Origin: a virus
Direction: 5' to 3' (one strand)
Virus record (IMG/VR): IMGVR_UViG_3300007345_000047
DNA length: 55,706 nucleotides
Shown one piece after another: positions 598-36,442 of the stretch; the first letter of the stretch is position 1; each line of letters opens with the position of its first letter. The notes under the pieces are model-generated. The model saw only the letters and a program-made list of their open reading frames with translations. It had not been told where the DNA came from and did no database searches. The position numbers were made by a program, and so were the translations under genes.

Positions 598-627
598 TTG
601 ACAGCGTAACGGATACGGGACTATGCT
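598..627 (+). promoter_or_regulatory. Sigma70-like early promoter candidate
   Basis: TTGACA (598-603), 18-bp spacer, TATGCT (622-627), just upstream of the first + strand start region. Confidence 0.4.
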
Positions 628-681: not shown

Positions 682-768
682 ATGAATCAACAACTTAGAG
701 ACCACGGCATCAGCCTCCTGCTTATCGCAGCCCTTCTACTGGTACGCTTCGGAGGGGTCGCAGCATGA
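682..768 (+). CDS. Possible 28-aa hydrophobic leader peptide
   Basis: ATG 682 is preceded by ACAAGGA (668-674). The core is ISLLLIAALLLV. The TGA stop overlaps the ATG of the 765 gene (ATGA). Confidence 0.3.
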   Translation: MNQQLRDHGISLLLIAALLLVRFGGVAA

Positions 769-1532
769 ACGTACAATCACTGATAGCACGGGGCGCGATC
801 TTCTACTGCAGCACCAGCGGTGGCAAAGACAGTCAGGCGATGACAGCTCTTCTGGCACGCTTGATCCCTGCAGAGCAGCTGGTCTATGTGCACGCCAATC
901 TGGGTGAGGTCGAGTGGCACGGGGTGCAGGATCACATCAACGACACACTACCAGCCGGTGGTGAGCTAAACGTGGTCACGGCTAACTGGGCTGATGGCAC
1001 CGAGAAGACGCTGCTCGGCATGGTCGAGAATCGCGGTATGTGGCCGTCATCAGCCTACCGTCAGTGCACCAGCGACCTGAAGCGCAACCCGATCCAGAAG
1101 TTTATCCGCAGAGACCTGAAGGCACGCGGATCGAAGCTGGCCGTCAACTGCATGGGCATCCGATCCGAAGAATCCAAATCGAGAGCCAAGAACATCTCAG
1201 AGAAGTTCGTCGATGGCTGGAGGCTGGCCACTAAGGAGATGTGCGCGGCTGGCCGTGAAGTCTACGATTGGTATCCGCTCCACGACTGGTCAACTGAGAT
1301 GGTATTCGCCCAGATCAAGCGAGCTGGCCAGCAGCCACACTACGCATACGCCGAGGGCAACGAACGCCTAAGCTGCTGCTTCTGCATCATGGGCAGCAAA
1401 AACGACCTACGCAACGCCGCCCGTCTTCGCCCAGAGCTGGCAGCGAAGTACATCGCGCTGGAAGAGAAGATCGGCCACAGATTCACTGATAAGGCCACAC
1501 TGGCCGAACTGATAGCAACCGACGCGCAATAG
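765..1532 (+). CDS. PAPS reductase-like PP-loop ATP pyrophosphatase family protein
   Basis: N-terminal PP-loop FYCSTSGGKDSQAM and C-terminal Cys cluster ERLSCCFCIMG, typical of the PAPS reductase/DndC-like fold. Confidence 0.8.
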   Translation: MNVQSLIARGAIFYCSTSGGKDSQAMTALLARLIPAEQLVYVHANLGEVEWHGVQDHINDTLPAGGELNVVTANWADGTEKTLLGMVENRGMWPSSAYRQCTSDLKRNPIQKFIRRDLKARGSKLAVNCMGIRSEESKSRAKNISEKFVDGWRLATKEMCAAGREVYDWYPLHDWSTEMVFAQIKRAGQQPHYAYAEGNERLSCCFCIMGSKNDLRNAARLRPELAAKYIALEEKIGHRFTDKATLAELIATDAQ

Positions 1533-1592
1533 TCGAAACGGGGCGAGTCCCCGTCTGCAGGTCACGGCCTCCCTGCACTGATGAGACAGGCC
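1530..1592 (+). ncRNA. Type II hammerhead self-cleaving ribozyme, copy 1
   Basis: Order is UAGUC-GAAA, then stem III (ACGGGG/CCCCGU, loop CGAGU), then C1555 as cleavage site. Stem I follows (UGCAG 1556-1560 / CUGCA 1573-1577), then CUGAUGA (1578-1584), then GAC. The complete core is in the stem-II-open order. Confidence 0.85.
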
Positions 1593-1614
1593 AACAACTA
1601 CAAGGAATAAACGT

Positions 1615-2169
1615 ATGAACAAGTATCACTTCAATATTAAAGGATCAATGATCGACTCAGCCCGCGAGATACTAGGCGACCGAATGACAATGATCGGTAC
1701 GGGTGGAGGCTTCGATTATATTATGGTGCGATCCACCGAGAACCGTGACTTTGTGCTCTCCGGAGAGTGGTGCGATAGCTCGCCTGATTCGATGGATGAG
1801 TCCAGCAGCGTCTCGATCCAGAGGTGCAGCGCAGCAGAGTATGGCGAGTGGGATTGCGAGGGCTATGAGATCGCATTCGAGGGCACAGCCCAGCAGTGCC
1901 TGACATTTATGTCTATGCTCCCAGCTGTCTCTCTGGATGAGCGCAACGACGGCCTAGTGCGAGAGTTCGCCCAGATGTGCTCCGACCACTATCTGGAGAC
2001 GGGTGAAGACTTGCCCTATTCGACAGAGATGTTCGATGCCGACGGCACGAAGATCGTTAACCCGTGGATGGATGAGACCGGCAGATACCCCGTCGATCCC
2101 ACAGAGTACTACGGCATGGCATTCACAAAATGGTACGCGCCGACGCGAACCATTATGGGGAGTTTCTAA
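1615..2169 (+). CDS. Hypothetical protein (acidic)
   Basis: 184-aa ORF. The start is preceded by UACAAGGA (1599-1606). Confidence 0.6.
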   Translation: MNKYHFNIKGSMIDSAREILGDRMTMIGTGGGFDYIMVRSTENRDFVLSGEWCDSSPDSMDESSSVSIQRCSAAEYGEWDCEGYEIAFEGTAQQCLTFMSMLPAVSLDERNDGLVREFAQMCSDHYLETGEDLPYSTEMFDADGTKIVNPWMDETGRYPVDPTEYYGMAFTKWYAPTRTIMGSF

Positions 2170-2170
2170 T

Positions 2171-2356
2171 ATGAACCAGACTATATGGGTAACAATTGGG
2201 CATCAGTATGGGCGCGTCATCTACAAGCCAGCCAATGAGATCGCGAAGCTATTCGCAGATGTCGCTGGCACGCAGACTCTAACGCCCAATACCATCGCCC
2301 TGCTGAAGGCTGCAGGGTACACAATCAAAGTAGATCAACCGGAGGTGACAATATGA
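2171..2356 (+). CDS. Hypothetical protein (61 aa)
   Basis: ATG 2171 has GGGGAG 8 nt upstream. It is the in-frame tail of the listed ORF 2003..2356. Confidence 0.5.
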   Translation: MNQTIWVTIGHQYGRVIYKPANEIAKLFADVAGTQTLTPNTIALLKAAGYTIKVDQPEVTI

Positions 2357-2565
2357 TTATCGGAACTCTTATTGAAATGGCGCACACGTATGGCTTCCTC
2401 AATGCGGTAATGCTGCTGGCCGTGCTGGTCTGTCTCATTATCACGCTGATCGGGATGGTCACGGATCGCAGGGCTATGGAGCGGTTTCAGGCTGCGATGG
2501 CAACTAAGCGCGAGCAGCAGATGGTATGGGATCGCAACGAGTTCACAGATGAAATGATGAGTTGA
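2353..2565 (+). CDS. Small membrane protein
   Basis: GGAGG RBS and ATGA overlap with the upstream gene. One hydrophobic helix (FLNAVMLLAVLVCLIITLIGMV). Confidence 0.55.
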   Translation: MIIGTLIEMAHTYGFLNAVMLLAVLVCLIITLIGMVTDRRAMERFQAAMATKREQQMVWDRNEFTDEMMS

Positions 2566-2572
2566 GACTGTC

Positions 2573-2617
2573 GGTGACCTTCTAGCGAGGGTCACCCGCA
2601 GTAGCAATTCCGCTACT
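2573..2617 (+). promoter_or_regulatory. Conserved two-hairpin RNA motif, copy A
   Basis: Hairpin 1: GGTGACC-TTCTAGCGAG-GGTCACC (2573-2596). Hairpin 2: AGTAGC-AATTCC-GCTACT (2600-2617). The same architecture with different stem sequences occurs at 5344-5388. Confidence 0.5.
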
Positions 2618-2633
2618 TACAGGGAAACAAGTT

Positions 2634-3029
2634 ATGTCTAAGACAATTGAGCAGCAAATAGCAATAATCGAGAACGCATTAATGAGCCACTGCGAGGACT
2701 GTGTGAGCCGCCATGCAGAGCAGAGGCGAGTGGATAAAGCATTCGATGCACTCTGCAAACGGGCACTGCCATCAGGCCTGGCGAAAGCCTGGGACACAAA
2801 AAGCGAGCTCGAATTGACCGATCTATTAGAGTGGTACACCAGCGCAAATAGATTGCCGATGATGTCGGCAGATGAACTGCTTGCAGAGCTGCCAGACCTC
2901 GGGCTTACCGAGCGAGTGCAGGAATGCCACCGAGTGTGGCTGAACGCATTCTGTGAGGCGTGGGAGTTATTGGACGCGCCCAGCCAATCCGAAGAACTGA
3001 AGGCGGCCATACGCTGGATGAAGGTGTAG
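2634..3029 (+). CDS. Hypothetical protein
   Basis: 131-aa ORF. The start is preceded by UACAGGGA (2618-2625). Confidence 0.6.
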   Translation: MSKTIEQQIAIIENALMSHCEDCVSRHAEQRRVDKAFDALCKRALPSGLAKAWDTKSELELTDLLEWYTSANRLPMMSADELLAELPDLGLTERVQECHRVWLNAFCEAWELLDAPSQSEELKAAIRWMKV

Positions 3030-3094
3030 CCCAGACCGTCAATTAATGCTATAAAGCAATCCACACTCATTCATTTATTACAGGGAAAACAGTT

Positions 3095-3526
3095 ATGACA
3101 GCATTTACAGGTAAAATTGAAAACATCGAACGCATGGCCAGCAGCAGGAACGGCAACCCCCGCTACAAGTTCACCGTGGGCGGCCAGAGTGTCAAGCTGG
3201 CACCGGACAGCAGCTGGGGCTACTGCATCACCAACCTACGCAATCGCCACGTGACCGTAGAGGTCACGCCCCTACAGCATCTGGTTAAAAGCATCTGTGC
3301 TGCAGACCACTGGGAGGTCGAAGAGCTAGACGCATCTGGGGGATGGGAGAACAACTGGCACGATGAGACCGGCCAGCCCCAGACCTTCTCCACCAGAGGC
3401 GAAGCGCACGCAGAACTGGACGACCTGCTGGAGTCCGTGCAGCTGGCAGTGGCCGATGGTCACATGGCCGCAGAGTACAGCCGCGAAGATTACCGCGTAG
3501 TAATGGTCGGGGGGCGTGCAATATAG
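3095..3526 (+). CDS. Hypothetical protein
   Basis: 143-aa ORF. The start is preceded by UACAGGGA (3079-3086). Confidence 0.6.
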   Translation: MTAFTGKIENIERMASSRNGNPRYKFTVGGQSVKLAPDSSWGYCITNLRNRHVTVEVTPLQHLVKSICAADHWEVEELDASGGWENNWHDETGQPQTFSTRGEAHAELDDLLESVQLAVADGHMAAEYSREDYRVVMVGGRAI

Positions 3527-3586
3527 TCGAAACGGGGCGAGTCCCCGTCTGCAGATATCGGCCACCCTGCACTGATGAGACAGGCC
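3524..3586 (+). ncRNA. Type II hammerhead self-cleaving ribozyme, copy 2
   Basis: Same core and stems as copy 1: GAAAC 3529-3533, cleavage after C3549, CUGAUGA 3572-3578. It differs from copy 1 only at 4 loop-I positions. Confidence 0.85.
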
Positions 3587-3603
3587 ATTACACGGAGAAT
3601 GTT

Positions 3604-4332
3604 ATGAAGACAATCGAACTAATAGAACGCGCACCAATCTCGGAGGAGCTGAGAGCAGCCCTCCTTCCCGCAATAGCTAAGGCTGGCAAGTGGAGGGGGT
3701 CCCTGCTGGCCAACGCACCAGCCACCAATATCGCATGGCAGGTGCTGGTCGGTTTCGCTGCTCCAGCCCGCGTTAAGGTCTGGGGGATGATGGGCGAGAA
3801 CGCCGCACGATTCAATCACCTCGACGACCTAGCAGTGGCCAGCGGCATCAACTGGGCTAGAGCACTGAGCGCGACAGAGCCCTACGCACGCTGGAATGCC
3901 GATGGCCTAGATTTGGATCGCGATGCAATTCTGCGCGAGATCGAGCCGCACTTGCTACCAGCTAAGGCGACGGTAACTAAGAAGCGGGCGCATCCCTGCG
4001 TCGAGTTCCTAGATGTAGTGGCCGACGCACTGGCCGCTGGGTTCGGCGATATGCTGCACTTGGGGGAATTCAAAGACGATAGAGGCCATGACAAATTTAA
4101 GATAAAGCTGCTATGGGAGAACACTACTCTCAATGTGGTCATGGATAACAATGTGGCCGCGATCCGCGACCGTGCAGATCGCCTCGACCAGCAGATACGA
4201 GGTCATAAGGCCAAGGGAGAGGGCTCCACGCTAAAAGAGTACCGCAGGATGCGTAACTGGAAGCCCAGCTACAAAGTCGTGCCACTGAGCCCAGAGAGAG
4301 CCGCTGAGTGCGGCATGGAGATGGGGCTGTGA
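3604..4332 (+). CDS. Hypothetical protein
   Basis: 242-aa ORF. The start is preceded by UACACGGA (3589-3596). Confidence 0.6.
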   Translation: MKTIELIERAPISEELRAALLPAIAKAGKWRGSLLANAPATNIAWQVLVGFAAPARVKVWGMMGENAARFNHLDDLAVASGINWARALSATEPYARWNADGLDLDRDAILREIEPHLLPAKATVTKKRAHPCVEFLDVVADALAAGFGDMLHLGEFKDDRGHDKFKIKLLWENTTLNVVMDNNVAAIRDRADRLDQQIRGHKAKGEGSTLKEYRRMRNWKPSYKVVPLSPERAAECGMEMGL

Positions 4333-5333
4333 ACTACTATAACGAGTTCGACCCTTTCGCAGCCGCTTGGCTTGAAGAATTAATCAAAGACGGACTGATC
4401 CCAGCAGGGACAGTCGATCAGAGGAGCATTACCGATGTCAGACCCGAAGACCTTAAAGACTTTACCCAATGCCACTTTTTCGCAGGAATCGGCGGTTGGA
4501 GCTACGCACTCCAGCTTGCAGGATGGAGCCCCGATAGACCCGTCTGGACAGGATCACCCCCCTGCCAGCCTTTCTCAGTCGCAGGAAACCAAAAAGGTAA
4601 GGACGATCTTCGACACCTCTGGCCTGTCTTCTTCAATCTTATCCGCGAGTGTCAACCTGCAGTCGTTTTTGGTGAGCAGGTTGCCAGTGCGATTAGACAG
4701 TCTTGGTTCGACGATCTACAAACGGACATGGCGGCAGAAGGCTACGCCAGCGGATTGGCCGTACTGCCAGCTTGCAGCGTCGGTGCCCCGCACAAAAGGG
4801 AAAGACTCTTCTATGTCTCGGAGCGGATGGGCAACACCGAATACAATGGACGTACTGCCACTGAGGTCGGAAGAGGCTCTACGCAAGCAAGCGACAGGGG
4901 CGAGGAAGGGCAGGACGTTTCCAGCGAATCTACGGGAGCAGGTAGACCCTCGATCTCAGGAGATATACGCCGATGCGAGTTCTGTCCCCACGCCTACGAC
5001 GAAGAGCTTGGACGATACGGGTGCCCCAACTGTCTCGGTACAGGGTTGGACAACACCGAATACGCGGGACTGGAAGGACACAGCGGGGCAGTCAACGGAG
5101 GGGGAGGGCAACAGGCAGCGGATAGATCAAACGCCCAGGCAAGCGTTCCAGTTGATTGGAGCGATGTCTACTACCCCCGATTTAGGGACGGAAAATGCCG
5201 CCCAGTACCAACTGAATCCACGCTTTTCCCTTTGGCTCATGGGGTTCCCAACAGGGTGGGCATCCTGCGCGGAGCGGGTAACGCTATTGTCCCGCAAGTC
5301 GCAGCCGAAGTCATAAGGGCGTACATGGGCTGA
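4308..5333 (+). CDS. DNA (cytosine-5)-methyltransferase with internal zinc ribbon
   Basis: Motifs FAGIGG (I), PPCQPFS (IV), GEQV (VI), PHKRERLF (VIII), GAGNAIVPQV (X), plus CEFC-x12-CPNC. The start could instead be GTG 4329, which overlaps the upstream stop. Confidence 0.85.
   Translation: MRHGDGAVNYYNEFDPFAAAWLEELIKDGLIPAGTVDQRSITDVRPEDLKDFTQCHFFAGIGGWSYALQLAGWSPDRPVWTGSPPCQPFSVAGNQKGKDDLRHLWPVFFNLIRECQPAVVFGEQVASAIRQSWFDDLQTDMAAEGYASGLAVLPACSVGAPHKRERLFYVSERMGNTEYNGRTATEVGRGSTQASDRGEEGQDVSSESTGAGRPSISGDIRRCEFCPHAYDEELGRYGCPNCLGTGLDNTEYAGLEGHSGAVNGGGGQQAADRSNAQASVPVDWSDVYYPRFRDGKCRPVPTESTLFPLAHGVPNRVGILRGAGNAIVPQVAAEVIRAYMG
4435..5316 (+). other. 293-codon +1-frame ORF nested in the methyltransferase gene, with MTase-like motifs in its 3' half
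   Basis: Reads GWATPNTMD (4825-4851), GWTTPNTRDWKD (5044-5079) and LNPRFSLWLMGFPTGW (5212-5259). There is an in-frame ATG at 4813. The 5' part is low-complexity. Confidence 0.3.
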
Positions 5334-5412: not shown

Positions 5413-5802
5413 ATGAGCAATTACTTCTATAAATATAATGTGGCTCCGAAGGGTAAGAGAAGAGGCACCGTGAGATTCTTCAAAGCACTGTCGGACTGCA
5501 TCCAATTCGCAGAACTGCACGAGGGATCGCGACTAATGCACCGCAACCAAGTCGAGGGCGGCAGCGAGAGCCTGACCTGCACGCTCGACAGCCTGGATTC
5601 GGCCACACTAGGCACGTTCACCGACCGCGTGCAGCACGGATCGCGACCATCAGAACGGACAATCGATGTCTACGCGGAGGCGTACTCCTACGGATCGCAG
5701 GACAATGGCAAGCTGGTGGGTGTCATTTCCTGCTTTAAATTTGCCGACATCGATCAAATTCTAGCCACAAGGGGACTGTCCGATGTTATTTCTAACTCGT
5801 AA
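5413..5802 (+). CDS. Hypothetical protein
   Basis: 129-aa ORF. The start is preceded by UACAAGGAU (5398-5406). Confidence 0.6.
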   Translation: MSNYFYKYNVAPKGKRRGTVRFFKALSDCIQFAELHEGSRLMHRNQVEGGSESLTCTLDSLDSATLGTFTDRVQHGSRPSERTIDVYAEAYSYGSQDNGKLVGVISCFKFADIDQILATRGLSDVISNS

Positions 5803-5953
5803 GCCCCAACCAGGGCAGGATACAATACTCATAGGCGACAATATCCGCGTGGTTATACGCCGGATCGACGAGCACAATCAGGTACGGGTGGGCATCACAG
5901 CCCCGATAGAGATCAATATTGTCAGAGAGGAGATCGACAATCGTGGGAAATAA
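5783..5953 (+). CDS. csrA: CsrA/RsmA-family RNA-binding translational regulator homologue (56 aa)
   Basis: Not in the ORF track (too short). Own translation: MLFLTRKPQPGQDTILIGDNIRVVIRRIDEHNQVRVGITAPIEINIVREEIDNRGK. This aligns with CsrA MLILTRR..GE.L.IGD...V.V......QVR.G..AP....V.REEI. Confidence 0.8.
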   Translation: MLFLTRKPQPGQDTILIGDNIRVVIRRIDEHNQVRVGITAPIEINIVREEIDNRGK

Positions 5954-6791: not shown

Positions 6792-6983
6792 AGCACGGGT
6801 CTCGGTTACATGAACAGTTTAACTAATTATCGCATTCGGAGGCTTGCTTTGTCACGCGGGGGATGCGTAGGATAGAGGGTACTCTCAAGCGATACGTGGG
6901 GTATCGCTGAGAATAGTCAAGGCATTCAACGGTTCGCCTCTTCACCAGGCTACTCAGCTGGGGACGAAATTACTGAGTTCTAG

Positions 6984-7008
6984 GGGATCCTTCGGGATCC
7001 CTTTTTTT
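6984..7008 (+). terminator. Rho-independent terminator, + strand orientation
   Basis: GGGATCC-TTCG-GGATCCC followed by seven T. In the - direction no U-tract follows the hairpin. Confidence 0.75.
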
Positions 7009-9755: not shown

Positions 9756-10011
9756 CGTTCTTCTCCAGTGCTGCTTTGATTCGCTCCAACAAAGGGTCAG
9801 AACTCATACCTACTTGACCCAATGCGTCCACCCTATTTCTGTGCAGTGCCGCCAAATCCTCCCTGCTTATGCTCACTCTCTCACTACTGGTAGCGGGTGC
9901 AGCATCCTTCTCCAGCTCGGCTATGCGGTCTGCTGCTCTCTGACATAGCTTTATCAGATACCTTTCCGAGCATCCGTGGCATTCCCTAAGCTGTCCCTCT
10001 AACTCACTCAT
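9748..10011 (-). CDS. Small paralogous-array protein (87 aa)
   Basis: Contains the APATSSERVSISRED module and the IKAALEKNDE terminus. Confidence 0.55.
   Translation of the reverse strand: MSELEGQLRECHGCSERYLIKLCQRAADRIAELEKDAAPATSSERVSISREDLAALHRNRVDALGQVGMSSDPLLERIKAALEKNDE
9856..9900. repeat. 45-bp dispersed repeat, copy 1 (partner at 10989-11033; 1 mismatch)
   Basis: atcctccctgcttatgctcactctctcactactggt[a/g]gcgggtgc, read directly. Confidence 0.9.
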
Positions 10012-27916: not shown

Positions 27917-30900
27917 CTAGTTTTTGTCTCTACCTTCCACGAATGGCTGCAGTGCTGCACCCACCACTTCCGGAATTGTTTCTGGTGCCTTCTCGTTACC
28001 TTCAAGAGCCGACTTTGTGTAGTCTAGCATTCTGACGACATTACCTGAACCTGGCAGTGCAATGAAAGTGCCAGCAACCTTGATAAAGTTCTCCAGTGTC
28101 TCAGCAGTATTAGCCCACGAAGGATTCGTTACCGCCTCCAACAGTTTCGGACCCTGAGACGGCAGCTGCTGCACGGTGCCAATGGCATCGTCCATCAGCG
28201 TGCTTGGCTTGAAGTTACTTTGACCAGGCAGCAGGTCTCCGAAGATTGGGATAGTGGCTCCCATAAAGCCGGTGTAACCCAGCCCCAGCCACTTAGCTAC
28301 CTTCAGAGGGAACTCGTCGTCGCGCTCGTCGTCGTCCAGCTTCGGTATGTTCATCGCAATTACTTCCGACAGAACCATTGTGAGCATTGGGGTTAGCACG
28401 AGTGCCTCGAACGCTGGAATGGACATCCACTCCTTACCGCCGCGAGTGTTTCTGTAAGCACGCTGGAAGATAGAAGAGTTGAACCAAGACCCAAAGACTG
28501 TAAGCATCTTCATGTAGGCAGCTTCATTAGACCGGAATATCTTACCTAAGTGAAGATCCATGCCGGAGCCGATAGTCTCAGCCACTGTTACATCTGCATT
28601 AAGGATGGCCAGCTCCTCGTCGCCGTGTTTCGTCATCTCGTTGCTGTATGTAGCCAGCCATGTGGGGTAAGAAACCACCATGTCCAGCATCACGTGCGGC
28701 GTGAAACCGTGCTGTGCGAATTTATTAAGAGCAGCTTCTGCCTTCGAGCCACTCTCCACACGCTTCATCAGATCCGCAGCTTCTCGGTTCAGGTGAGCTT
28801 TACGCGCTCGCATCTGGGCAGACTTCTCCTCCACGAACGCGCGGTTCTCTGCGAAGTTCCCATGAAAAGCCAAGGACGCACTGCTGTAGTTTATTGGACC
28901 CATCTCTGCCATCGAAGGGAGGACGGATGCCACCTGCTGCATAATGTTCTTCACGTTGTAGGCGAGATACATCATAGACTTAGAGTAGCGGATTTGTCTG
29001 ATTATAGCGGCCAGTGCAGGTATGGGATCCTGCTCTTTTAGATTTGTAGTTAAGCCCTGGATCGACTGCATCATCGCCTTATCAAAGCCCTCGCCAAACT
29101 TGTCTGCAAGTGAGGTACGGACCTCTTTGTCATTGAACAAAGACTGCAGCTCCGTAGCGGTTGTAGCGTACGCGATGTAGTGCGCGTTCTCTTCGATGAC
29201 CCTGTAGATGTTCTGCACTTCCAGCAGTGGCTTCCTGCCGCCTGAGCCCGAACGAGCCGTAGCTGCGGTGGCCTTACTGTTCGAGAGAGAGTTGACCGTG
29301 TTCAAAGGGTCTTCGTCTAGTCGTACCTTCGCATCTATGTCGCCGCCAGAACCACCGTAGATGAGAGTCATGTGCCCACCACGCATGGTCTTTCCATTCA
29401 CAGTGAAAGGCATGTGGGTCTCCAGAGGAGGAGCCACACCCTCGCGGTCGTGCGTTGCTTGGAACAGCGGGGTCTTCATGTGGTCACTCAGCTCCCACAG
29501 TGACTGGACCATGTCGAGCTCCTGCTCGGACATCTGCTCCATCATTCGCATAACGTCATTGTCGGTGACATCGAAGCCTTTACGAACAGCCTCTTGGCTA
29601 GTATCAGTCCCCCAGTACGCAGCAAGCATGAATCGCTGGCGAGCAGACAGATGCCATTTGCTCCCGTCCTCTTTGGTCACGCTTCGAACCGACGCGCTAC
29701 TATCAGCTATACCAGTGAGGTCTGCATCAGCGAACAGCTCGTCTAGTTTTCCATAGAAGTCTTCGAGAATGTTCAGCTTGGCGTTCTCGGCGTTGCTGAT
29801 CCTACGGTAGACACTGTCGAAGAATGCGCCGTCGCCAAGGTCTCGAATCATATTACGCAGCGAGGGCACCAGGTGGATAGCGTGCTGTATCCAACCGCGC
29901 ATCCTGTGGCGACTAGATGCCTCCCAATCTGCTTTACTCTTTGACTCTCCCATCTCTTCCAGCTGGGCGAGCATAGCGTTGCGTTCCATAGAGAGCGGCC
30001 CCTTGTCTTCGGCGGCGATCTGCCCGCCCACGAACCGTAGGTGCTTGAGCTGGTCGCTCACACTTTCCAGCTGCTCCAGTGTCATCTCATCAAACGTAGG
30101 AAGGTACTCTAGGCCAGCCCGCAGCTCTATTACATTTAGATCCTTCAAGTTCACATCGACACCGTCGCGCTGCTGACCGGCGATCCAGTTAGCAAAGTCT
30201 CGTGCAGCCTTGACTCTCTTTCCTTCTTTCGGTCTGCTGGAAGTGTCATACATTTTAGCCAGCCGCTTCATGGACTGTATGTATTCTGCATCCACCTGAG
30301 TGGTCTTGTAGTCTCTCTTCTGTACGCCCCTAATATAGTCGCGGTACGTGATCGCATCCTTTCTAGCTTTAAGAGCGGCCAGGAATAAATAGTGGTTAGC
30401 TATCTGCTGGAGTTTAGCATCGTACGCTGCTTCCGCTGTCTTGGCGCGAGCCGCATCCTGTGCAGCCCTTACCTCTGCCCTGTGGAATCGCTCTGGCTTC
30501 AACTCGCCGTAGGTCATAGTTCCCACACTCTGTGCAGCTTTAGCCTTCAGGAATTCTTTGTCCACATCTGGGGTGCTCTTCTTCCGTGAGCGGGACTTGA
30601 TAGCTCTCAGTTCCTTCAGCATCAGATCGGCTTGCGCCTCATTGTGCATAGCTTCTCTGGCTTCAGCTTCGATAGTTCCGTCGTTGAGCATGTCGCCGTA
30701 CTTGGCAACCATTATCTCTTCCGCAGCAGCATCTGCCGCAGCAGTAATCCCTTCAGCATTGTGGACAGCGGTGACCATCTCTTCTACAGATGCAAATCCT
30801 AATTGCTCTGCCAGAAGCTCTGGGTCATCCCCGCCTTTCTTAGTTAGGAACTGCAGCTTAGTTTTCTTAGGGAGAGACTCCACGCCCATAGCAGCCACTA

Positions 30901-33900
30901 CAGCATCGCGATCGAGGGGCAGGTCTTTCATTATGCCCATAGCCTGGTAGACAGGCTGTCCTGCCAGCTTCTCTTTTTGTTCTGCAATGAGAGGCTTCTT
31001 CTCTTCGTTCCACTCTTTACTGCGGCGAGCTCCCAGTTCTTTCAGTAGCTTCTCGAACAGAGTCATCTCTGCATTCTTCTTTCGAGTTTCAAGAGACTTC
31101 TGGTAGCTCTCCCACTGCTTGTCGGTCATACCGGCTCGCTCTTTGCCCTTAAAGAGCTGCTCGTACTCAGCACCAGCGGCCACATTGGCAATCTCTGCTT
31201 CAGTAGCCAGCATGCGATCAAAGATCTCAGTTATCTCTTTATTAAGAGGAAGGCCGAGCTGGCGCATGGACTTATAAATTTGTCCCAACCACTTGGAGAA
31301 TTGCAGGAAGGCAGCTCGTAGTCCACGAGTGGGAGCCTTACCCGTACGCAAGTAATCCTCAAAGGTTCTCGCCCACAGTTCATGCTCTTTGACACCAATG
31401 GCATCGAAGGAGTCTACACCTAGCATCTTCAGCATGGCTTTCTGGTTATCGCCCAGACCATACTTCGCTGCTAGTGACTTCTCAGTCTCTAGGAACAGGT
31501 GACCTGCTTCATGTAAGAATGTGGACTTATCAGATCCAGCAGCCAGCTCAATGAGCTTCTCGCCGGACTTCATAATCTCTATGCTGCCGCGTGGCGCATC
31601 TTTTCCAGGCTTCTTCTGAGCTAGGATTGTGGCCTCGTTTGCACGGTCTGGATCGAATACAGCGTTGATAGATCGAATGTGTGCAGGATCGAATATCGCA
31701 GTGTTCTTGATATTGTCGGGGTCATTGTTGCCGCGTTTGGGATCCCCTCCTTCAAGCACAGTGAATGCAGTGTATTGCATGTCTCTGATGGCCACTTGAA
31801 TAGCGGAGTCTTTCTCTACGATCTCCCAGTTGCCCGATTCGATCGCACGCATTCGCCAGTCAGCTCCGGCCTTCAACTGGTCACCAGGTGTGCCGGTTGC
31901 CTCTAGCTCTATCTGGATGTGTTGGTGGAGATCGTTGTACTCGTCCTCGGTCAAGTTCTGGTGGTCTAGTAGCTTGTCCTTCTTAATAAGCAAAGGATAC
32001 ACGGGACCGACAGAAATGCCTGAAGGTGGAACGAATCCCTCGTTGTAGCCCGCGAACGTAGATGCAAAGTCTGGATCCGGAGTTACGAATATAAAGTCTC
32101 TGCCGTTGTCGAAGCGGTCGAGTACGAACCCCATAATGTTAGAAGCTGTGGTGCCGTGGTAGTAGATGTTCTCAGTGTCGAATCCCATCTCCTTGGCACG
32201 CTGCATTCTGGCACTGAAGGTCATGCCCTCTTCGCCAAACTTCTCAACACCTTTGATCCAGTCCACAGCTTCGATAGCATCTCTGCCCTTATAGCTAGTC
32301 TGCTCATTCACAGCATCGAGCATGGCGGTCTCAGATATTTCCTGAAGATCGAACTCCACATCGTCAGTGATCCGCACACCAAGACTCTCAAGCTCTGCGA
32401 GTGCTTCGTTGAATTTGTCCTGTCTGGCTTTCTCTACGTCGGACTGATTGAGGACAAGTGAGCTTTCATCTTTTTGAAATTCAGGTGGGGCTGTTGGTTC
32501 TGTGCCCGTATCTGATCGTCGCTTACTCCCTCGTTTGGACTTTGCGCTGTCTGGTCGATTAGACTCAACTTCGCTTTCGCCGAGTCTAGCTGTAGCGAGT
32601 CTTCGGAATTCTTCTTCATAGTCGGTAGCCTCTGTTTTCTTGCTGCCCACACCATTGGTGACATACAAGTCTTTTTCTAAATACCACACCAATGCTTGAA
32701 ATGTGGCGGCGTTCAATTCTATACCCTCGGCCTTCAATTGAGCAAGACCCTCGTACGACACTTCTCGAATCCAGTTCCGGTTGCTTCCGTTGCCAGGCTC
32801 GATCACAGGGTCGTTCACTGCTTCGTATAAATTCTTAGCAGTCTTGTTAATGTCAGACTTGTCTTTGTATTTGCTGCGAGCATATCTGGCACGGTACTCT
32901 TTAGCGAGTTCCAGCAGCGCGTCGTCGTCCTTCATCAGCAGAGCTTTGTTGATGCCTGGAGTTCTAGGGGGCAGTGCCTTAATGGCTGCTCTAAACTTCG
33001 CAGCACGGGTGCTACTCTTGTCACCCTTCTTTGACTCGGCGTGCATGGCATCTTCACGGATAGGCATGTTAGTACCAGTCCATCTTCCCCATGTCTTCAT
33101 AAACCAGCGATCCATAGTTATGGGATCGTAGTTGCCACTGAGGTTCTGATAGAACGCTCCCAGCTTAGGTCCGAGAATCATAGAGCCGTTGACTACAGTG
33201 TCCTGCAGCTCTCCGGACACTGTGATGCCAGTGAATTCGGCAAGGTCTCGCACGGTGATTGGGTTCTCTAACATCCTAACAGTGTCCTTCATCCCCATAC
33301 CGGAGATAAGGCTGTTCATCAGCTTGAAGTGACCCTTGTTCGCTGCGATTGTGGTAGACCAGCCAATGATCGGGAACTTCTTCTTCTTTTTGTAGTAGCT
33401 GTAGACCTCCTCAGCATGCTTGGAGTTAGACTCCACATCTGCCATATTCGAGCTGATAGCCATAGCCAGCTTGAAGATAACTAATGCTTCCGGATCTGTC
33501 TGCAGCTCTGGGTGGATAAGAGCCGCGTAGTGCATTGCAGATTCGATGCTGGTGCTGTACCAGTCGGCTCCGTTGCCAGATTGGCTAAGTGCCCACTTCA
33601 CTTCTTCCTTCATCGTTTCGACGATAATGGCTTTGTTCTCTTCGGTTCGCTCGCGGAGTGGCCCGCCGTGCTCTTCGGCTATCAGCTCATCCAAGCGAGT
33701 AGCAAGCATGGACGCAGTGACCTTACCCTTCTCAGGGATTCCATCGATCTTCTCTCCGGAGGTAATAGACTTCAAAGTCACATTGTCGCCGGTCAAGTCT
33801 ACTTCAGCTTGATATAAGAAGTCAGACGAGTCGCCGTATGTTGGGTTCTTCGCCAGAGTTAAGGGTCCGACCTGGAGCACCTCGACTGCACCTACTATAG

Positions 33901-36442
33901 GTTCCATCGTGGCGCGGTCATAGAAATAACTGTGTCTCTCGGGGTCGTACCCCACTTGCACGTAGGCAGGATCTGATAGCGCATTGTTCGCCATCTCAAT
34001 AGATTCCTCTACGCTGATCTTCTTCCACTTACCTTTGACTACGGCGATCGTGCTCTTAGCACTGCCCGTTGCAATCTTCTGGGAGATGCCTTCGTGTGCA
34101 CCCAAGGTAGCGTCGGTGACTAATGCCACACTCTCGTAGCCGATAGACTTGCCAGCTTTAAAGCCAGAGCCCTTCTCGTGTACTGAGACCACCCAAGTGC
34201 CGTGCCGTGTGTACGCAGGAATATCCAGACGAACACCAACTTCGTGGCCTTCCTCCAGACTCTTCATTGGCGCACCTATTCGAGCTTGCTTTCCCTTATC
34301 CAGCGACGTGGATACTTCATCCACAGTGGCCGGTGTCGGAACACTCTCGTATGGTGTAACGGGCTTGTACTCGTTAACCAGGCGAGAATACTCTTCCGGA
34401 GTCATTGACCCGTCAGCTACCTGCTTGGCAGCTTCAGTTAACTCTGGGATTCTTTTGGTGACCTCTTTGAAGTACATGTCGATCCGCGGGTTCGCGTGCT
34501 GGATCTTGACATTCTTACCTTTCTTAGGTTCTGCAGGAGCTTCTTCTGTTTGCGTTTCTTCCACCGCTGTGTCGGTATCCGCGCCCGTTTCTACCGCTGT
34601 GTCGGTATCAGTAGTCTCGGCATCCCCATCGACCACAATCTCTGCAGTAGTGTCGGTGAGCGAGTTAATCTTAGGAGCAGCCTGTACCTCTGGCGAGGAC
34701 TCATACACTGGGGGCTTTGCCGGTGCATCCACAGCTCCTTCGGCGGGCTTGATCCTGAAGTTCATCTCTTCATAGATGTCCCGCGCTGTTACCTCAATGC
34801 CTCGCCCCTGCAGCTCTGTAACCTTAGTAGTTACATACGCAGGAATTATCTGGGCGGACATCTCAGCCGTGCCTTTAGCTAACCTGCCGGAAGCTACTAG
34901 CTGGCTTACCACCTCATCGTGGATATCATCAGCTTCAGTTCTGGTGGCCTTATCCTCTTTGGCTAGATTCATCAGCCGCTCTAGCTGGCTGCTGTCTCTG
35001 TTCTGAATCTCGAATTGTGTGTACGAGTCTGCAGACCGCTTCATGTGCGGGCGCAGTGCCTCAGTGAGCTGCTCGTCTCCGATTATGTCGAGAGCGAATG
35101 AGTCCACAGTTAAGGAGACATCCTGGCCGGAACCCATCTGGTCTTGAAGTGTGGTGGGAACAGTTAGTCCGGCATCCATTGCCGCCTGTATTCCTTCTGG
35201 AGAGATGTAAACCCTGTCATCGGGATCCATATCCTTAAAGAATTGTCTGGCAACATCAGGAGCCTCTTGGTTCAGCTTCATGCTCAGGATCGAGGATATC
35301 ATCCCGTCGAGAGACTGCTGCTCATTTACAGAGCCAAGGTCTTTCTCAAAGTTCTGTTGTACTCGGAGTTCGACAGCATCGAATGGAAGAGTGGCAGCTC
35401 TCATCGCTCCACCCATCGGACCGCCAGCTACCATGCCCGCAAAGCCTCTATCGAGACTCTCTGCGACAGACATCTCCGCTCCGGTTCCCATTGTCTCGCC
35501 GACGTATTCTACTTGTTCTTGTACGAATTCTGTTAAGCCCTCTACGGCTCCACGCTTCGCTATCTCACCGGCAGCAGCTCGTAGTGTTGGAGACGTGAGC
35601 TTATTCCCCAGCATGCCCAGAGCACCTTTGGCCGAGAGTCTGTCAATCAAAGTCACAGCGACCGCAGTCGGAACTGACTTAACTAATTCCATTGGGTCTA
35701 CTGCTCCCCCTCCGGCATTTTCAGTTCTGGACTCGGCTATCTCTTGTGTACGAGAGGCTAGGTATGCGGGAAGAGTTGCCATCATTCCTGCGATATCAAC
35801 AAAGGACTGTGCCCCAGTCTCCATCACATATCCGGCCAGGTTAGCTACAGAGGGCTCTCCTTTAAGGTCTTCCCAGCTGTACTGCTGCTCGTAGCCGAGA
35901 CCGCCTTCGGAAATTGCCTTTCCTAGATAGTCCATCTTCTCTGATAGATTGAGGGATCCTTCCTCGGCTAGACCCAATTGTTCTGCCATCATCTCGTAGC
36001 CGGACACAGCGGTGCCGGCAAACTGAATCAGGTTACCTGTGAGAGTGTTAGCGCGTTCGCCCATGCCCAGGCCGACATTCTTCCAGTAGCTGCCCTTCCT
36101 TCTCTGGGCGAGCTCAAAGCTCTTCATGCCCTCTAAGTCATCGACGGTCATGCGAGCTTGCTTGGGATCTGCCATCCACAGTGCTACACCAGGTGTCTCC
36201 TGCTGGAGACGCATGGCATCTATGTTCATCTGCCGTCTGGTTCTGTTGGTCTCTGCCGTCTCTATATCTGATTCAGCAGAAGTGAAGGGAACCCCAGTCT
36301 GCTGAGACACGGTCTCAGCCCTGCGAGCTGTCGAAGGGTCATCGACTTCTAGGGCTAGTCCGAGAGACTCATTAAGTTTCTGGGTTTCTCTTTCTTCTTT
36401 CCATTTGGTGGCTTTCGCAATAAGTTCTTCATCTACAGGCAT
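27917..36442 (-). CDS. Giant (2841 aa) virion-associated polyvalent / ejection protein
   Basis: Single uninterrupted ORF with a Gly/Ala-rich N-terminal region and zincin motif FLHEAGHLFLE. The YHGTTASNIMGF region is possibly ART-like. Confidence 0.75.
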   Translation of the reverse strand: MPVDEELIAKATKWKEERETQKLNESLGLALEVDDPSTARRAETVSQQTGVPFTSAESDIETAETNRTRRQMNIDAMRLQQETPGVALWMADPKQARMTVDDLEGMKSFELAQRRKGSYWKNVGLGMGERANTLTGNLIQFAGTAVSGYEMMAEQLGLAEEGSLNLSEKMDYLGKAISEGGLGYEQQYSWEDLKGEPSVANLAGYVMETGAQSFVDIAGMMATLPAYLASRTQEIAESRTENAGGGAVDPMELVKSVPTAVAVTLIDRLSAKGALGMLGNKLTSPTLRAAAGEIAKRGAVEGLTEFVQEQVEYVGETMGTGAEMSVAESLDRGFAGMVAGGPMGGAMRAATLPFDAVELRVQQNFEKDLGSVNEQQSLDGMISSILSMKLNQEAPDVARQFFKDMDPDDRVYISPEGIQAAMDAGLTVPTTLQDQMGSGQDVSLTVDSFALDIIGDEQLTEALRPHMKRSADSYTQFEIQNRDSSQLERLMNLAKEDKATRTEADDIHDEVVSQLVASGRLAKGTAEMSAQIIPAYVTTKVTELQGRGIEVTARDIYEEMNFRIKPAEGAVDAPAKPPVYESSPEVQAAPKINSLTDTTAEIVVDGDAETTDTDTAVETGADTDTAVEETQTEEAPAEPKKGKNVKIQHANPRIDMYFKEVTKRIPELTEAAKQVADGSMTPEEYSRLVNEYKPVTPYESVPTPATVDEVSTSLDKGKQARIGAPMKSLEEGHEVGVRLDIPAYTRHGTWVVSVHEKGSGFKAGKSIGYESVALVTDATLGAHEGISQKIATGSAKSTIAVVKGKWKKISVEESIEMANNALSDPAYVQVGYDPERHSYFYDRATMEPIVGAVEVLQVGPLTLAKNPTYGDSSDFLYQAEVDLTGDNVTLKSITSGEKIDGIPEKGKVTASMLATRLDELIAEEHGGPLRERTEENKAIIVETMKEEVKWALSQSGNGADWYSTSIESAMHYAALIHPELQTDPEALVIFKLAMAISSNMADVESNSKHAEEVYSYYKKKKKFPIIGWSTTIAANKGHFKLMNSLISGMGMKDTVRMLENPITVRDLAEFTGITVSGELQDTVVNGSMILGPKLGAFYQNLSGNYDPITMDRWFMKTWGRWTGTNMPIREDAMHAESKKGDKSSTRAAKFRAAIKALPPRTPGINKALLMKDDDALLELAKEYRARYARSKYKDKSDINKTAKNLYEAVNDPVIEPGNGSNRNWIREVSYEGLAQLKAEGIELNAATFQALVWYLEKDLYVTNGVGSKKTEATDYEEEFRRLATARLGESEVESNRPDSAKSKRGSKRRSDTGTEPTAPPEFQKDESSLVLNQSDVEKARQDKFNEALAELESLGVRITDDVEFDLQEISETAMLDAVNEQTSYKGRDAIEAVDWIKGVEKFGEEGMTFSARMQRAKEMGFDTENIYYHGTTASNIMGFVLDRFDNGRDFIFVTPDPDFASTFAGYNEGFVPPSGISVGPVYPLLIKKDKLLDHQNLTEDEYNDLHQHIQIELEATGTPGDQLKAGADWRMRAIESGNWEIVEKDSAIQVAIRDMQYTAFTVLEGGDPKRGNNDPDNIKNTAIFDPAHIRSINAVFDPDRANEATILAQKKPGKDAPRGSIEIMKSGEKLIELAAGSDKSTFLHEAGHLFLETEKSLAAKYGLGDNQKAMLKMLGVDSFDAIGVKEHELWARTFEDYLRTGKAPTRGLRAAFLQFSKWLGQIYKSMRQLGLPLNKEITEIFDRMLATEAEIANVAAGAEYEQLFKGKERAGMTDKQWESYQKSLETRKKNAEMTLFEKLLKELGARRSKEWNEEKKPLIAEQKEKLAGQPVYQAMGIMKDLPLDRDAVVAAMGVESLPKKTKLQFLTKKGGDDPELLAEQLGFASVEEMVTAVHNAEGITAAADAAAEEIMVAKYGDMLNDGTIEAEAREAMHNEAQADLMLKELRAIKSRSRKKSTPDVDKEFLKAKAAQSVGTMTYGELKPERFHRAEVRAAQDAARAKTAEAAYDAKLQQIANHYLFLAALKARKDAITYRDYIRGVQKRDYKTTQVDAEYIQSMKRLAKMYDTSSRPKEGKRVKAARDFANWIAGQQRDGVDVNLKDLNVIELRAGLEYLPTFDEMTLEQLESVSDQLKHLRFVGGQIAAEDKGPLSMERNAMLAQLEEMGESKSKADWEASSRHRMRGWIQHAIHLVPSLRNMIRDLGDGAFFDSVYRRISNAENAKLNILEDFYGKLDELFADADLTGIADSSASVRSVTKEDGSKWHLSARQRFMLAAYWGTDTSQEAVRKGFDVTDNDVMRMMEQMSEQELDMVQSLWELSDHMKTPLFQATHDREGVAPPLETHMPFTVNGKTMRGGHMTLIYGGSGGDIDAKVRLDEDPLNTVNSLSNSKATAATARSGSGGRKPLLEVQNIYRVIEENAHYIAYATTATELQSLFNDKEVRTSLADKFGEGFDKAMMQSIQGLTTNLKEQDPIPALAAIIRQIRYSKSMMYLAYNVKNIMQQVASVLPSMAEMGPINYSSASLAFHGNFAENRAFVEEKSAQMRARKAHLNREAADLMKRVESGSKAEAALNKFAQHGFTPHVMLDMVVSYPTWLATYSNEMTKHGDEELAILNADVTVAETIGSGMDLHLGKIFRSNEAAYMKMLTVFGSWFNSSIFQRAYRNTRGGKEWMSIPAFEALVLTPMLTMVLSEVIAMNIPKLDDDERDDEFPLKVAKWLGLGYTGFMGATIPIFGDLLPGQSNFKPSTLMDDAIGTVQQLPSQGPKLLEAVTNPSWANTAETLENFIKVAGTFIALPGSGNVVRMLDYTKSALEGNEKAPETIPEVVGAALQPFVEGRDKN

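Follow-up and report, generated by a model that had tools for sequence, protein, structure and literature searches.

The 55,706-bp phage genome recorded in IMG/VR as IMGVR_UViG_3300007345_000047 (henceforth the window, meaning this whole stretch of DNA) carries two type II hammerhead ribozymes, hammerhead 1 (HH1) at positions 1531-1596 and hammerhead 2 (HH2) at 3525-3590, both on the + strand. Their assignment to the type II hammerheads is well supported, all features of sequence and structure that define the type being found in the element and its copy. We consider it likely that the two are part of one multi-gene phage mRNA, which would cleave itself after C1555 and C3549 and thereby fall into three units.

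Sequence and fold of the two hammerheads

From 1530 to 1596, the + strand reads UAG UC GAA ACGGGG-CGAGU-CCCCGU C UGCAGG-UCACGGCCUC-CCUGCA CUGAUGA GAC A GGCC. The elements of HH1 follow each other in the order 5' stem II strand, GAAA, stem III hairpin, C17, stem I hairpin, CUGAUGA and 3' stem II strand; stems I and III are capped by loops and stem II is open, which is the type II topology. Stem II is formed by GUC (1532-1534) and GAC (1585-1587), three pairs that are never broken in an alignment of the class, and its first base, G1532, is at the same time the last base of the upstream UAG stop codon. The core nucleotides G12, A13 and A14 (1535-1537), invariant in 64 class members, are followed by the 6-bp stem III hairpin (1538-1554), in which A1538-G1543 pairs with C1549-U1554 around the loop CGAGU. 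Model alignments place the GUC triplet such that the predicted cleavage site lies between C1555 (C17) and U1556 (N1.1). Stem I (1556-1577) is a hairpin of 6 bp, UGCAGG/CCUGCA, in which U1556-G1561 pairs with C1572-A1577 below a loop of 10 nt. Downstream lie the core block CUGAUGA (C3 to A9; 1578-1584) and a segment, 1585-1592, made up of the 3' stem II strand, A1588 and the tail GGCC (1589-1592). This tail pairs with GGCC in loop I (1566-1569) to form a pseudoknot, both strands of which covary across the class, and U1570-A1588 may constitute a fifth pair of this helix. The catalytic guanines are G1580 (G5), G1583 (G8) and G1535 (G12).

The defining features recur at equivalent positions in HH2. 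The CUGANGA core (C3-U4-G5-A6-N7-G8-A9) is present at 1578-1584 and 3572-3578, and G12-A13-A14 is accompanied by the A15.1-U16.1 pair in HH1 (GAA 1535-1537, A1538-U1554) as well as in HH2 (GAA 3529-3531, A3532-U3548). The cleavage triplet, NUH with H17 other than G, is GUC in both copies (1553-1555 and 3547-3549), with predicted HH2 cleavage between C3549 and U3550. Standard pairs adjoining the core in all three stems, the acceptance rule used in PMC3088659, are formed throughout: 10.1-11.1 as G1585-C1534, 1.1-2.1 as U1556-A1577 and 15.1-16.1 as A1538-U1554, and likewise in HH2. Finally, loop I forms at least four pairs with the nucleotides 3' of stem II in either copy; in HH2, these join GGCC 3560-3563 to GGCC 3583-3586.

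From AUAG through GGCCA, HH2 is identical to HH1 save for four bases in loop I. As the flanks of HH1 and HH2 are unrelated on both sides, the repeated unit is exactly the ribozyme, pseudoknot tail included. HH2 also starts on a UAG stop codon (3524-3526), that of the open reading frame (ORF) 3095..3526. The two copies are 1,994 nt apart and point in the same sense within a + strand gene block running from 765 to about 6500, which is the arrangement of clustered phage hammerheads, with several same-sense copies between co-oriented genes. In one predicted fold, 3500-3508 paired with the HH2 tail (3583-3591) over 9 bp, an interaction that we judged to be due to chance because it is not conserved in a strain variant (L211) whose upstream sequence differs.

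An earlier annotation of this DNA, the original prediction, had proposed a type II hammerhead in which the G of the upstream UAG forms part of the open stem II. The covariance-model scores, compensatory changes among strains and class-wide covariation described below bear this out. Moreover, the sequence agrees with its placement of GAAA (1535-1538), GUC (1553-1555), CUGAUGA (1578-1584), the two stem II strands and the UAG of ORF 765..1532 at 1530-1532, and with its 6-bp stem III (ACGGGG/CCCCGU). Two details need correction: stem I of HH1, given as 5 bp with a 12-nt loop, has 6 bp and a 10-nt loop, and the control mutation named 'G1582' falls on a U (U7, the one variable core position). The second copy at 3525-3590 and the pseudoknot between loop I and the 3' tail come in addition to what had been proposed.

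Covariance models and class-wide covariation

In the whole window, RF02276 is the only Rfam family to reach its gathering score, with 38.1 bits for HH1 against a gathering score of 37 (E 3e-4); such a scan with the Rfam type II model had been suggested as a check on HH1 at the outset. A class model, R1, was built from 64 elements on other viral contigs, with the window excluded, and run with filters off. It assigned 70.3 bits to 1531-1596 (E 6e-17) and 67.3 bits to HH2 (E 4e-16), the best non-hammerhead match in the 55.7 kb scoring 11.6 bits. The core-plus-spacing pattern, expected 0.03 times on the basis of shuffled sequences, was found twice.

Further support comes from the pseudoknot. Among 91 unique elements, complementarity between loop and tail averages 4.68 bp, compared with 2.96 ± 0.09 bp for permuted partners, and 90% of the pseudoknot helix is paired in the class alignment, four of its five pairs showing compensatory changes. 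Over the class alignment as a whole, 16 of 20 pairs are compensated and the covariation score is 0.63, as against 0.15 after shuffling. A minimum of four pairs in stem I and four in stem III, and of nine in total, was a condition for inclusion in the class, so that only the pseudoknot result and the diversity of pair types are free of this selection.

The 11.6-bit R1 match (3316-3378, + strand, E 0.48) lies inside a 143-aa gene and is probably due to chance, or, with less likelihood, a decayed copy; it was rejected since it lacks GAAAC, CUGAUGA and both stems. It sits just past the point at which the 143-aa gene diverges from its homologue in L211.

Strain variants and selection on the fold

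The window is a complete, rotated phage genome. The same gene set is present on contigs of 55,685-55,724 bp from three other samples, and variants of both ribozymes occur on short contigs from further samples. An annotated relative could not be used, because a megablast search of window positions 700-4400 returned no match among GenBank phages and the portal protein is less than 30% identical to those of cultured podovirus-like phages of Pelagibacter and Alteromonas. Among viral contigs, neither the exact ribozyme 27-mer nor relatives of the 242-aa product of the gene downstream of HH2 were found. Strain variants of the same phage (L205, L206, L211 and L212) were compared with the window in an alignment of five sequences.

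Stem III reads ACCGGA-GCGA-UCCGGU in variants and ACGGGG-CGAGU-CCCCGU in the window, a difference comprising two fully compensated pairs. Likewise, stem I of L205 (UGCGGG/CCCGCA) differs from that of the window (UGCAGG/CCUGCA) by one compensated pair, A-U being replaced by G-C. The hammerhead core and the GGCC pseudoknot are unchanged across the strain variants. In the five-sequence alignment, 96% of cells are paired, compared with 23-40% when partners are slid by one to three columns. Compensated pairs together with an unchanged core and pseudoknot provide direct evidence, at the level of sequence comparison, of selection acting on the hammerhead fold as such in this phage lineage.

Gene neighbourhood and predicted processing of the operon RNA

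All genes from 765 to about 6500 are on the + strand, divergent from the - strand packaging genes, and both ribozymes are sense-oriented between co-oriented genes, with a ribosome-binding site and then an ATG 25-30 nt after the core. HH1 is preceded by a gene for a 255-aa PAPS-reductase-like protein (765..1532, + strand; Pfam PF01507, E 7e-11; PHROG 424, E 1e-40) and followed by a gene for a 184-aa protein without family match (1615..2169, + strand), with an AAGGAA Shine-Dalgarno-like motif at 1603-1608. HH2 is preceded by the 143-aa gene (3095..3526, + strand), whose UAG overlaps the ribozyme as at HH1, and followed by the 242-aa gene (3604..4332, + strand), with a GGAG motif at 3595-3598 and a predicted leader of 54 nt after cleavage. 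In addition to the PAPS-reductase-like protein, the block encodes several small proteins without family match, a cytosine-5 DNA methylase and a CsrA-family protein. A candidate sigma70-like promoter, TTGACA-18-TATGCT (598..627, + strand), matches the consensus at 10 of 12 positions, the number of such sites in the window not exceeding that in shuffled sequences; the first strong terminator-like hairpin with T run downstream of the block is likewise a consensus match (6982..7003, + strand), and a consensus scan found no terminator-like site between the two. A polycistronic context for the ribozymes is plausible on these grounds. HH1 had been described as part of an early polycistronic mRNA; the co-oriented genes and the sigma70-like site favour the polycistronic part of that description, 'early' being unsupported by them, plausible as early expression of the block is.

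According to the proposed mechanism, each ribozyme would fold into a three-way junction, with the 3-bp open stem II starting on the G of the upstream UAG and stems III and I as hairpins, and the GGCC/GGCC pseudoknot between loop I and the 3' tail would hold stems I and II parallel. By analogy with other hammerheads, the 2'-OH of C17 would attack the next phosphate, cutting after C1555 and C3549. The operon RNA would thus be split into a first unit with the PAPS-reductase-like gene, a second with a block of five genes (1556-3549), and a third with the remainder, starting with the 242-aa gene and the cytosine methylase. Since only the three pairs of stem II join the halves, the products should separate readily. 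Upstream products would extend 23 nt beyond the stop codon and finish in the G+C-rich stem III hairpin with a 2',3'-cyclic phosphate; in downstream products, the stem I hairpin would itself bear the 5'-OH and be followed by a short standard leader that has a ribosome-binding site of its own. For HH1, the original prediction had put the cut after C1555, 23 nt past the stop and leaving 59 nt to the ATG at 1615, and its arithmetic holds. 3' exonucleases and 5'-monophosphate-stimulated RNase E act poorly on hairpin-capped and 5'-OH ends of this kind, so that the lifetime of each piece could be independent of that of the others and its leader free of context. The likely benefit would be that the pieces are stable and translated independently of one another, both new ends being protected against end-dependent RNases. 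That cleavage takes place in vivo we infer from the known chemistry of hammerheads and from related prophage elements that are active in vitro and in vivo (PMC3088659, PMC8782182).

Other features of the genome were noted in passing. A 56-aa CsrA-family protein is encoded downstream of HH2 (5783-5953, + strand; Pfam PF02599, E 7e-15); this family comprises global RNA-binding translational regulators, and the phage-borne copy is thus found in the block that bears the ribozymes. The divergent intergenic region ahead of the + strand block contains tandem repeats (70-225), with periods of 10, 31 and 41 nt at 70-166 and (GCT)16 at 178-225, which account for spurious weak Rfam matches. On the - strand, 27917-36442 is a single ORF of 2841 aa with an N-terminal LPD22 domain (large polyvalent protein family), probably encoding an injected or virion-associated giant protein; a pattern match inside it (29907-29989, - strand) had no model support and was rejected.

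Stop-codon overlap across the class

We examined the relation between stop codon and ribozyme with a search pattern that fixes only GUCGAAAC, GUC and CUGAUGAGACAGG and leaves the upstream bases unconstrained. It matched at least 120 stretches in IMG/VR, often several per contig, and 67 bacterial genomes from many phyla; 91 unique viral elements (among the matches listed) and 70 unique bacterial elements were counted. In 58/91 viral and 33/70 bacterial elements, a long upstream ORF has its stop codon 2-6 nt ahead of stem II, and the exact layout of the window, with UAG running onto stem II, is seen in 34/91 and 14/70, respectively. Other common layouts have UAA or UGA followed directly by GUC. 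On the downstream side, the median distance from the core to the next ATG is 27 nt in viruses and 28 nt in bacteria. Random positions in the same loci reach 1.4% on the stop-placement measure, which is a generous null, because any intergenic element in a compact phage genome is near a stop. Ribozyme and ribosome-binding site together fill the whole gap between two genes, and this is a robust observation; overlap with the stop codon is a general trait of this hammerhead subclass. Hence the overlap that had been remarked on at the stop of the first gene of the block is real and not peculiar to that site, since it is repeated at the second copy and throughout the subclass.

A homologue of the PAPS-reductase-like protein that is 45% identical is encoded on L063, where the first of four ribozymes within 2.7 kb overlaps the UAG of that gene as in the window. 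Arrays of about three to five or six type II hammerheads per 2.5-3 kb, one per gene junction, are found at L063 2152-4804, L059 324-2880 and L095 8127-11067. We considered a specific tie to the PAPS-reductase-like gene and rejected it: R1 (E up to 0.01) detects such ribozymes at no more than two of the 80 loci that have the gene, and a divergent variant in L052, with CUGACGA, falls below this threshold. Given these two loci and a relative with the gene that has no ribozyme (L001, see below), the association is not gene-specific. Rarity of TAG was also set aside as an argument, TAG ending about 19 of 62 crude ORFs in the window.

Because the stop codon abuts and contributes to stem II, a terminating ribosome could in principle gate the ribozyme. 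It would cover and unwind stem II, GAAA and the first strand of stem III, confining cleavage to the intervals between ribosomes or to times when upstream translation falls, and mRNA cutting would thereby be coupled to translation. The ribosome footprint reaches about 12-15 nt past the A site and would here span roughly 1533-1545, from stem II to the 5' strand of stem III, which makes an effect on folding physically reasonable. The sharp, class-wide placement of the stop codon is compatible with such gating. Moreover, the overlap recurs after the 45%-identical homologue in L063 and is kept in L211 despite a replaced upstream coding sequence. However, maximal packing of the intergenic gap gives the same pattern and explains it more simply than ribosome control, the more so as the 3' side is also followed directly by ribosome-binding site and ATG. 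Furthermore, about one-third to one-half of the elements have their stop further off or lack a long upstream ORF, and in a few an ORF appears to pass through the ribozyme. Lastly, an A directly 5' of stem II is present in 83/91 viral elements, irrespective of whether it belongs to a stop codon. On balance, we regard gating by the ribosome as possible, though rather unlikely.

In the class alignment, an A is also invariant 3' of stem II. To judge by this conservation, the two A residues may be in structural contact at the base of stem II, which would happen to favour the stop layouts UAG, UAA-G and UGA-G.

The few class members in which a long ORF (up to 374 codons, L185) seems to run into or through the ribozyme are found in L185 near 1131, in L150 (- strand) near 9985 and 10321, and in L115 near 2746. 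These ORFs terminate either within the ribozyme or with a UGA that coincides with the CUGAUGA core or lies just beyond it. Overlap of protein-coding and ribozyme sequence is thus possible in L185, L150 and L115.

Gene exchange at the edges of the ribozyme

In L211 and L212, the gene upstream of HH2 has only its first ~64 residues in common with that of the window (72% identity); its C-terminus is unrelated, yet it terminates on the ribozyme UAG. At the DNA level, window and L211 are unalignable through the 3' half of this gene, and identity restarts exactly at TAGTCGAAAC and extends over ribozyme, leader and following gene. In L205, the ribozyme after the PAPS-reductase-like gene has an HH2-type leader and stands before a different downstream gene. 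Gene replacement is seen both upstream and downstream of the ribozyme, the breakpoints lying at the ribozyme edges (L205 1097-1358; L211 187-656; L206 1128-1194), and the swaps in L211/L212 and L205 place the ribozyme at recombination joints. Versions of stem III and of stem I with its loop also occur in differing combinations (L206, L211), which suggests, from the sequences compared, exchange at or within the element. Such joints could reflect the ordinary mosaicism of phages at gene borders, or a role of the ribozyme as a shared linker.

If the latter were the case, stop codon, ribozyme, ribosome-binding site and start codon would together form a portable junction, a linker for homologous recombination between gene modules, with RNA cleavage as its original or a parallel function. 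The resumption of identity at the very edge of the element in L211, the exchanged neighbour in L205 and the reshuffled stems in L206 and L211 are as expected from exchange within it, and the two window copies have one stem III version in common. On the other hand, only a few strain variants provide the evidence, phage gene borders are mosaic joints as a rule, and the element, at 65 nt, is short. The conserved catalytic core and the compensatory changes are left unexplained by a linker role and point to selection on the RNA fold. We therefore hold this explanation, too, to be unlikely while giving it some credit.

The two ideas may be combined. The 5' edge of the element would then supply a stop to any incoming reading frame, terminating ribosomes would unfold it and so time its cleavage, and its conserved sequence would serve as the joint for module exchange. 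The class-wide stop overlap and the mosaic junctions at the ribozyme edge are consistent with this combination and do not prove it; we think it improbable as a whole.

Further alternatives and points against the proposed cleavage

Cuts at both ribozymes would free an RNA of 1,994 nt (1556-3549), which might be circularized by a host RtcB-type ligase or by reversal of the hammerhead reaction. Two same-sense ribozymes do flank a gene block, and a 5'-OH together with a 2',3'-cyclic phosphate is the right chemistry for RtcB, which the predicted ends would suit. The possibility has been raised for prophage hammerhead clusters as well, but the same authors sought spliced or circular products and found none (PMC3088659). 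Furthermore, after cleavage the halves would be joined only by the 3-bp stem II across 2 kb, and arrays elsewhere are irregularly spaced and enclose different genes. Formation of a circular RNA is accordingly very unlikely.

Returning to self-cleavage of the phage mRNA into three units, a number of observations weigh against it. Minimum-free-energy folding of the two elements is no better than that of shuffled sequences (z -0.14 and 0.12), and HH1, taken by itself, has a competing structure as its fold of lowest energy; given a three-way junction, a 3-bp stem II and a pseudoknot, such uninformative energies are unsurprising. By itself, HH2 scores 32.2 bits in Rfam, below the gathering score of 37, and the window pseudoknot has 4 bp (with one further pair in HH1), the class usually having 5 bp of the form UGNCC/GGNCA. 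The case for co-transcription consists of gene orientation and of consensus scans whose numbers are not above chance. L001, the nearest relative to share the upstream gene (77% aa identity), lacks a ribozyme at that position, from which it follows that the ribozyme is dispensable at the junction after the PAPS-reductase-like gene. Finally, a 2019 review describes the function of the thousands of bacterial and phage hammerheads as largely elusive and their benefit as unknown (PMC6765202).

That the element is no ribozyme at all but a repeated intergenic sequence (a terminator, protein-binding site or small mobile repeat) with a chance resemblance or the status of a dead relic would fit the folding energies, the presence of two copies only and the nearest relative that lacks it, and is nevertheless most improbable: stem III is not followed by a U run, nor was a terminator called at that site, the core is intact throughout with all three core-adjacent pairs formed, an independent model gives E ~1e-16, compensatory changes occur within the lineage, and the repeat boundaries coincide exactly with the ribozyme and its pseudoknot tail.

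Comparison with known systems

Type II hammerheads with a pseudoknot between loop I and the tail, and clusters of them flanking prophage genes, were reported in 2011 (Perreault et al., PMC3088659). These prophage elements cleaved in vitro, on native transcripts of about 2 kb, as well as in vivo. The elements described here are like them (RF02276) in catalytic core, permutation, very short open stem II and pseudoknot, and equally in the presence of several copies between the genes of a phage operon; there is no structural difference. Stop-codon overlap and mosaic junctions at the ribozyme edge are seen here, and the overlap is unmentioned in that paper, in which 'stop codon' occurs 0 times. An incomplete search of the literature for a relationship between type II hammerheads and stop codons found none.

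In Desulfovibrio vulgaris, cyPhyRNA-seq showed that three type II hammerheads are active in vivo (PMC8782182). They too are of type II and adjoin phage-derived genes, and both cleavage fragments were captured from total RNA. Unlike these single chromosomal loci, the two near-identical copies described here belong to a free phage genome and are known from its sequence.

A parallel in layout is offered by the intergenic hammerheads of fungal RNA viruses, which also fill nearly the whole spacer between ORFs and cut a few nucleotides before the next start codon (bioRxiv 10.1101/2024.05.16.594327). Those are type I ribozymes in the genomes of eukaryotic RNA viruses, with a proposed role in cap-independent initiation. 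In the window, by contrast, type II ribozymes occur in a DNA phage and are followed by an ordinary bacterial ribosome-binding site. A further counterpart is found among synthetic insulators of the RiboJ type, in which a hammerhead-type ribozyme placed before a gene leaves it a fixed leader with a hairpin and a 5'-OH. Such insulators are engineered from a plant satellite RNA ribozyme and placed after promoters, not between natural cistrons.

The ribozyme kind is thus already known in phages, and the view of what hammerheads are is unchanged; generalization of the stop-codon overlap and the strain-level mosaic pattern may be modest additions to the known type II hammerhead picture. As a complete genome recovered from several samples, with two near-identical ribozymes, compensatory variants and a close relative without the element, this phage constitutes a clean test case. 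The succession of stop codon, ribozyme and ribosome-binding site makes the notion of 'mRNA processing' concrete, in terms of where the stop lies with respect to cleavage and of differing piece lifetimes that might be set by the two hairpin-capped ends.

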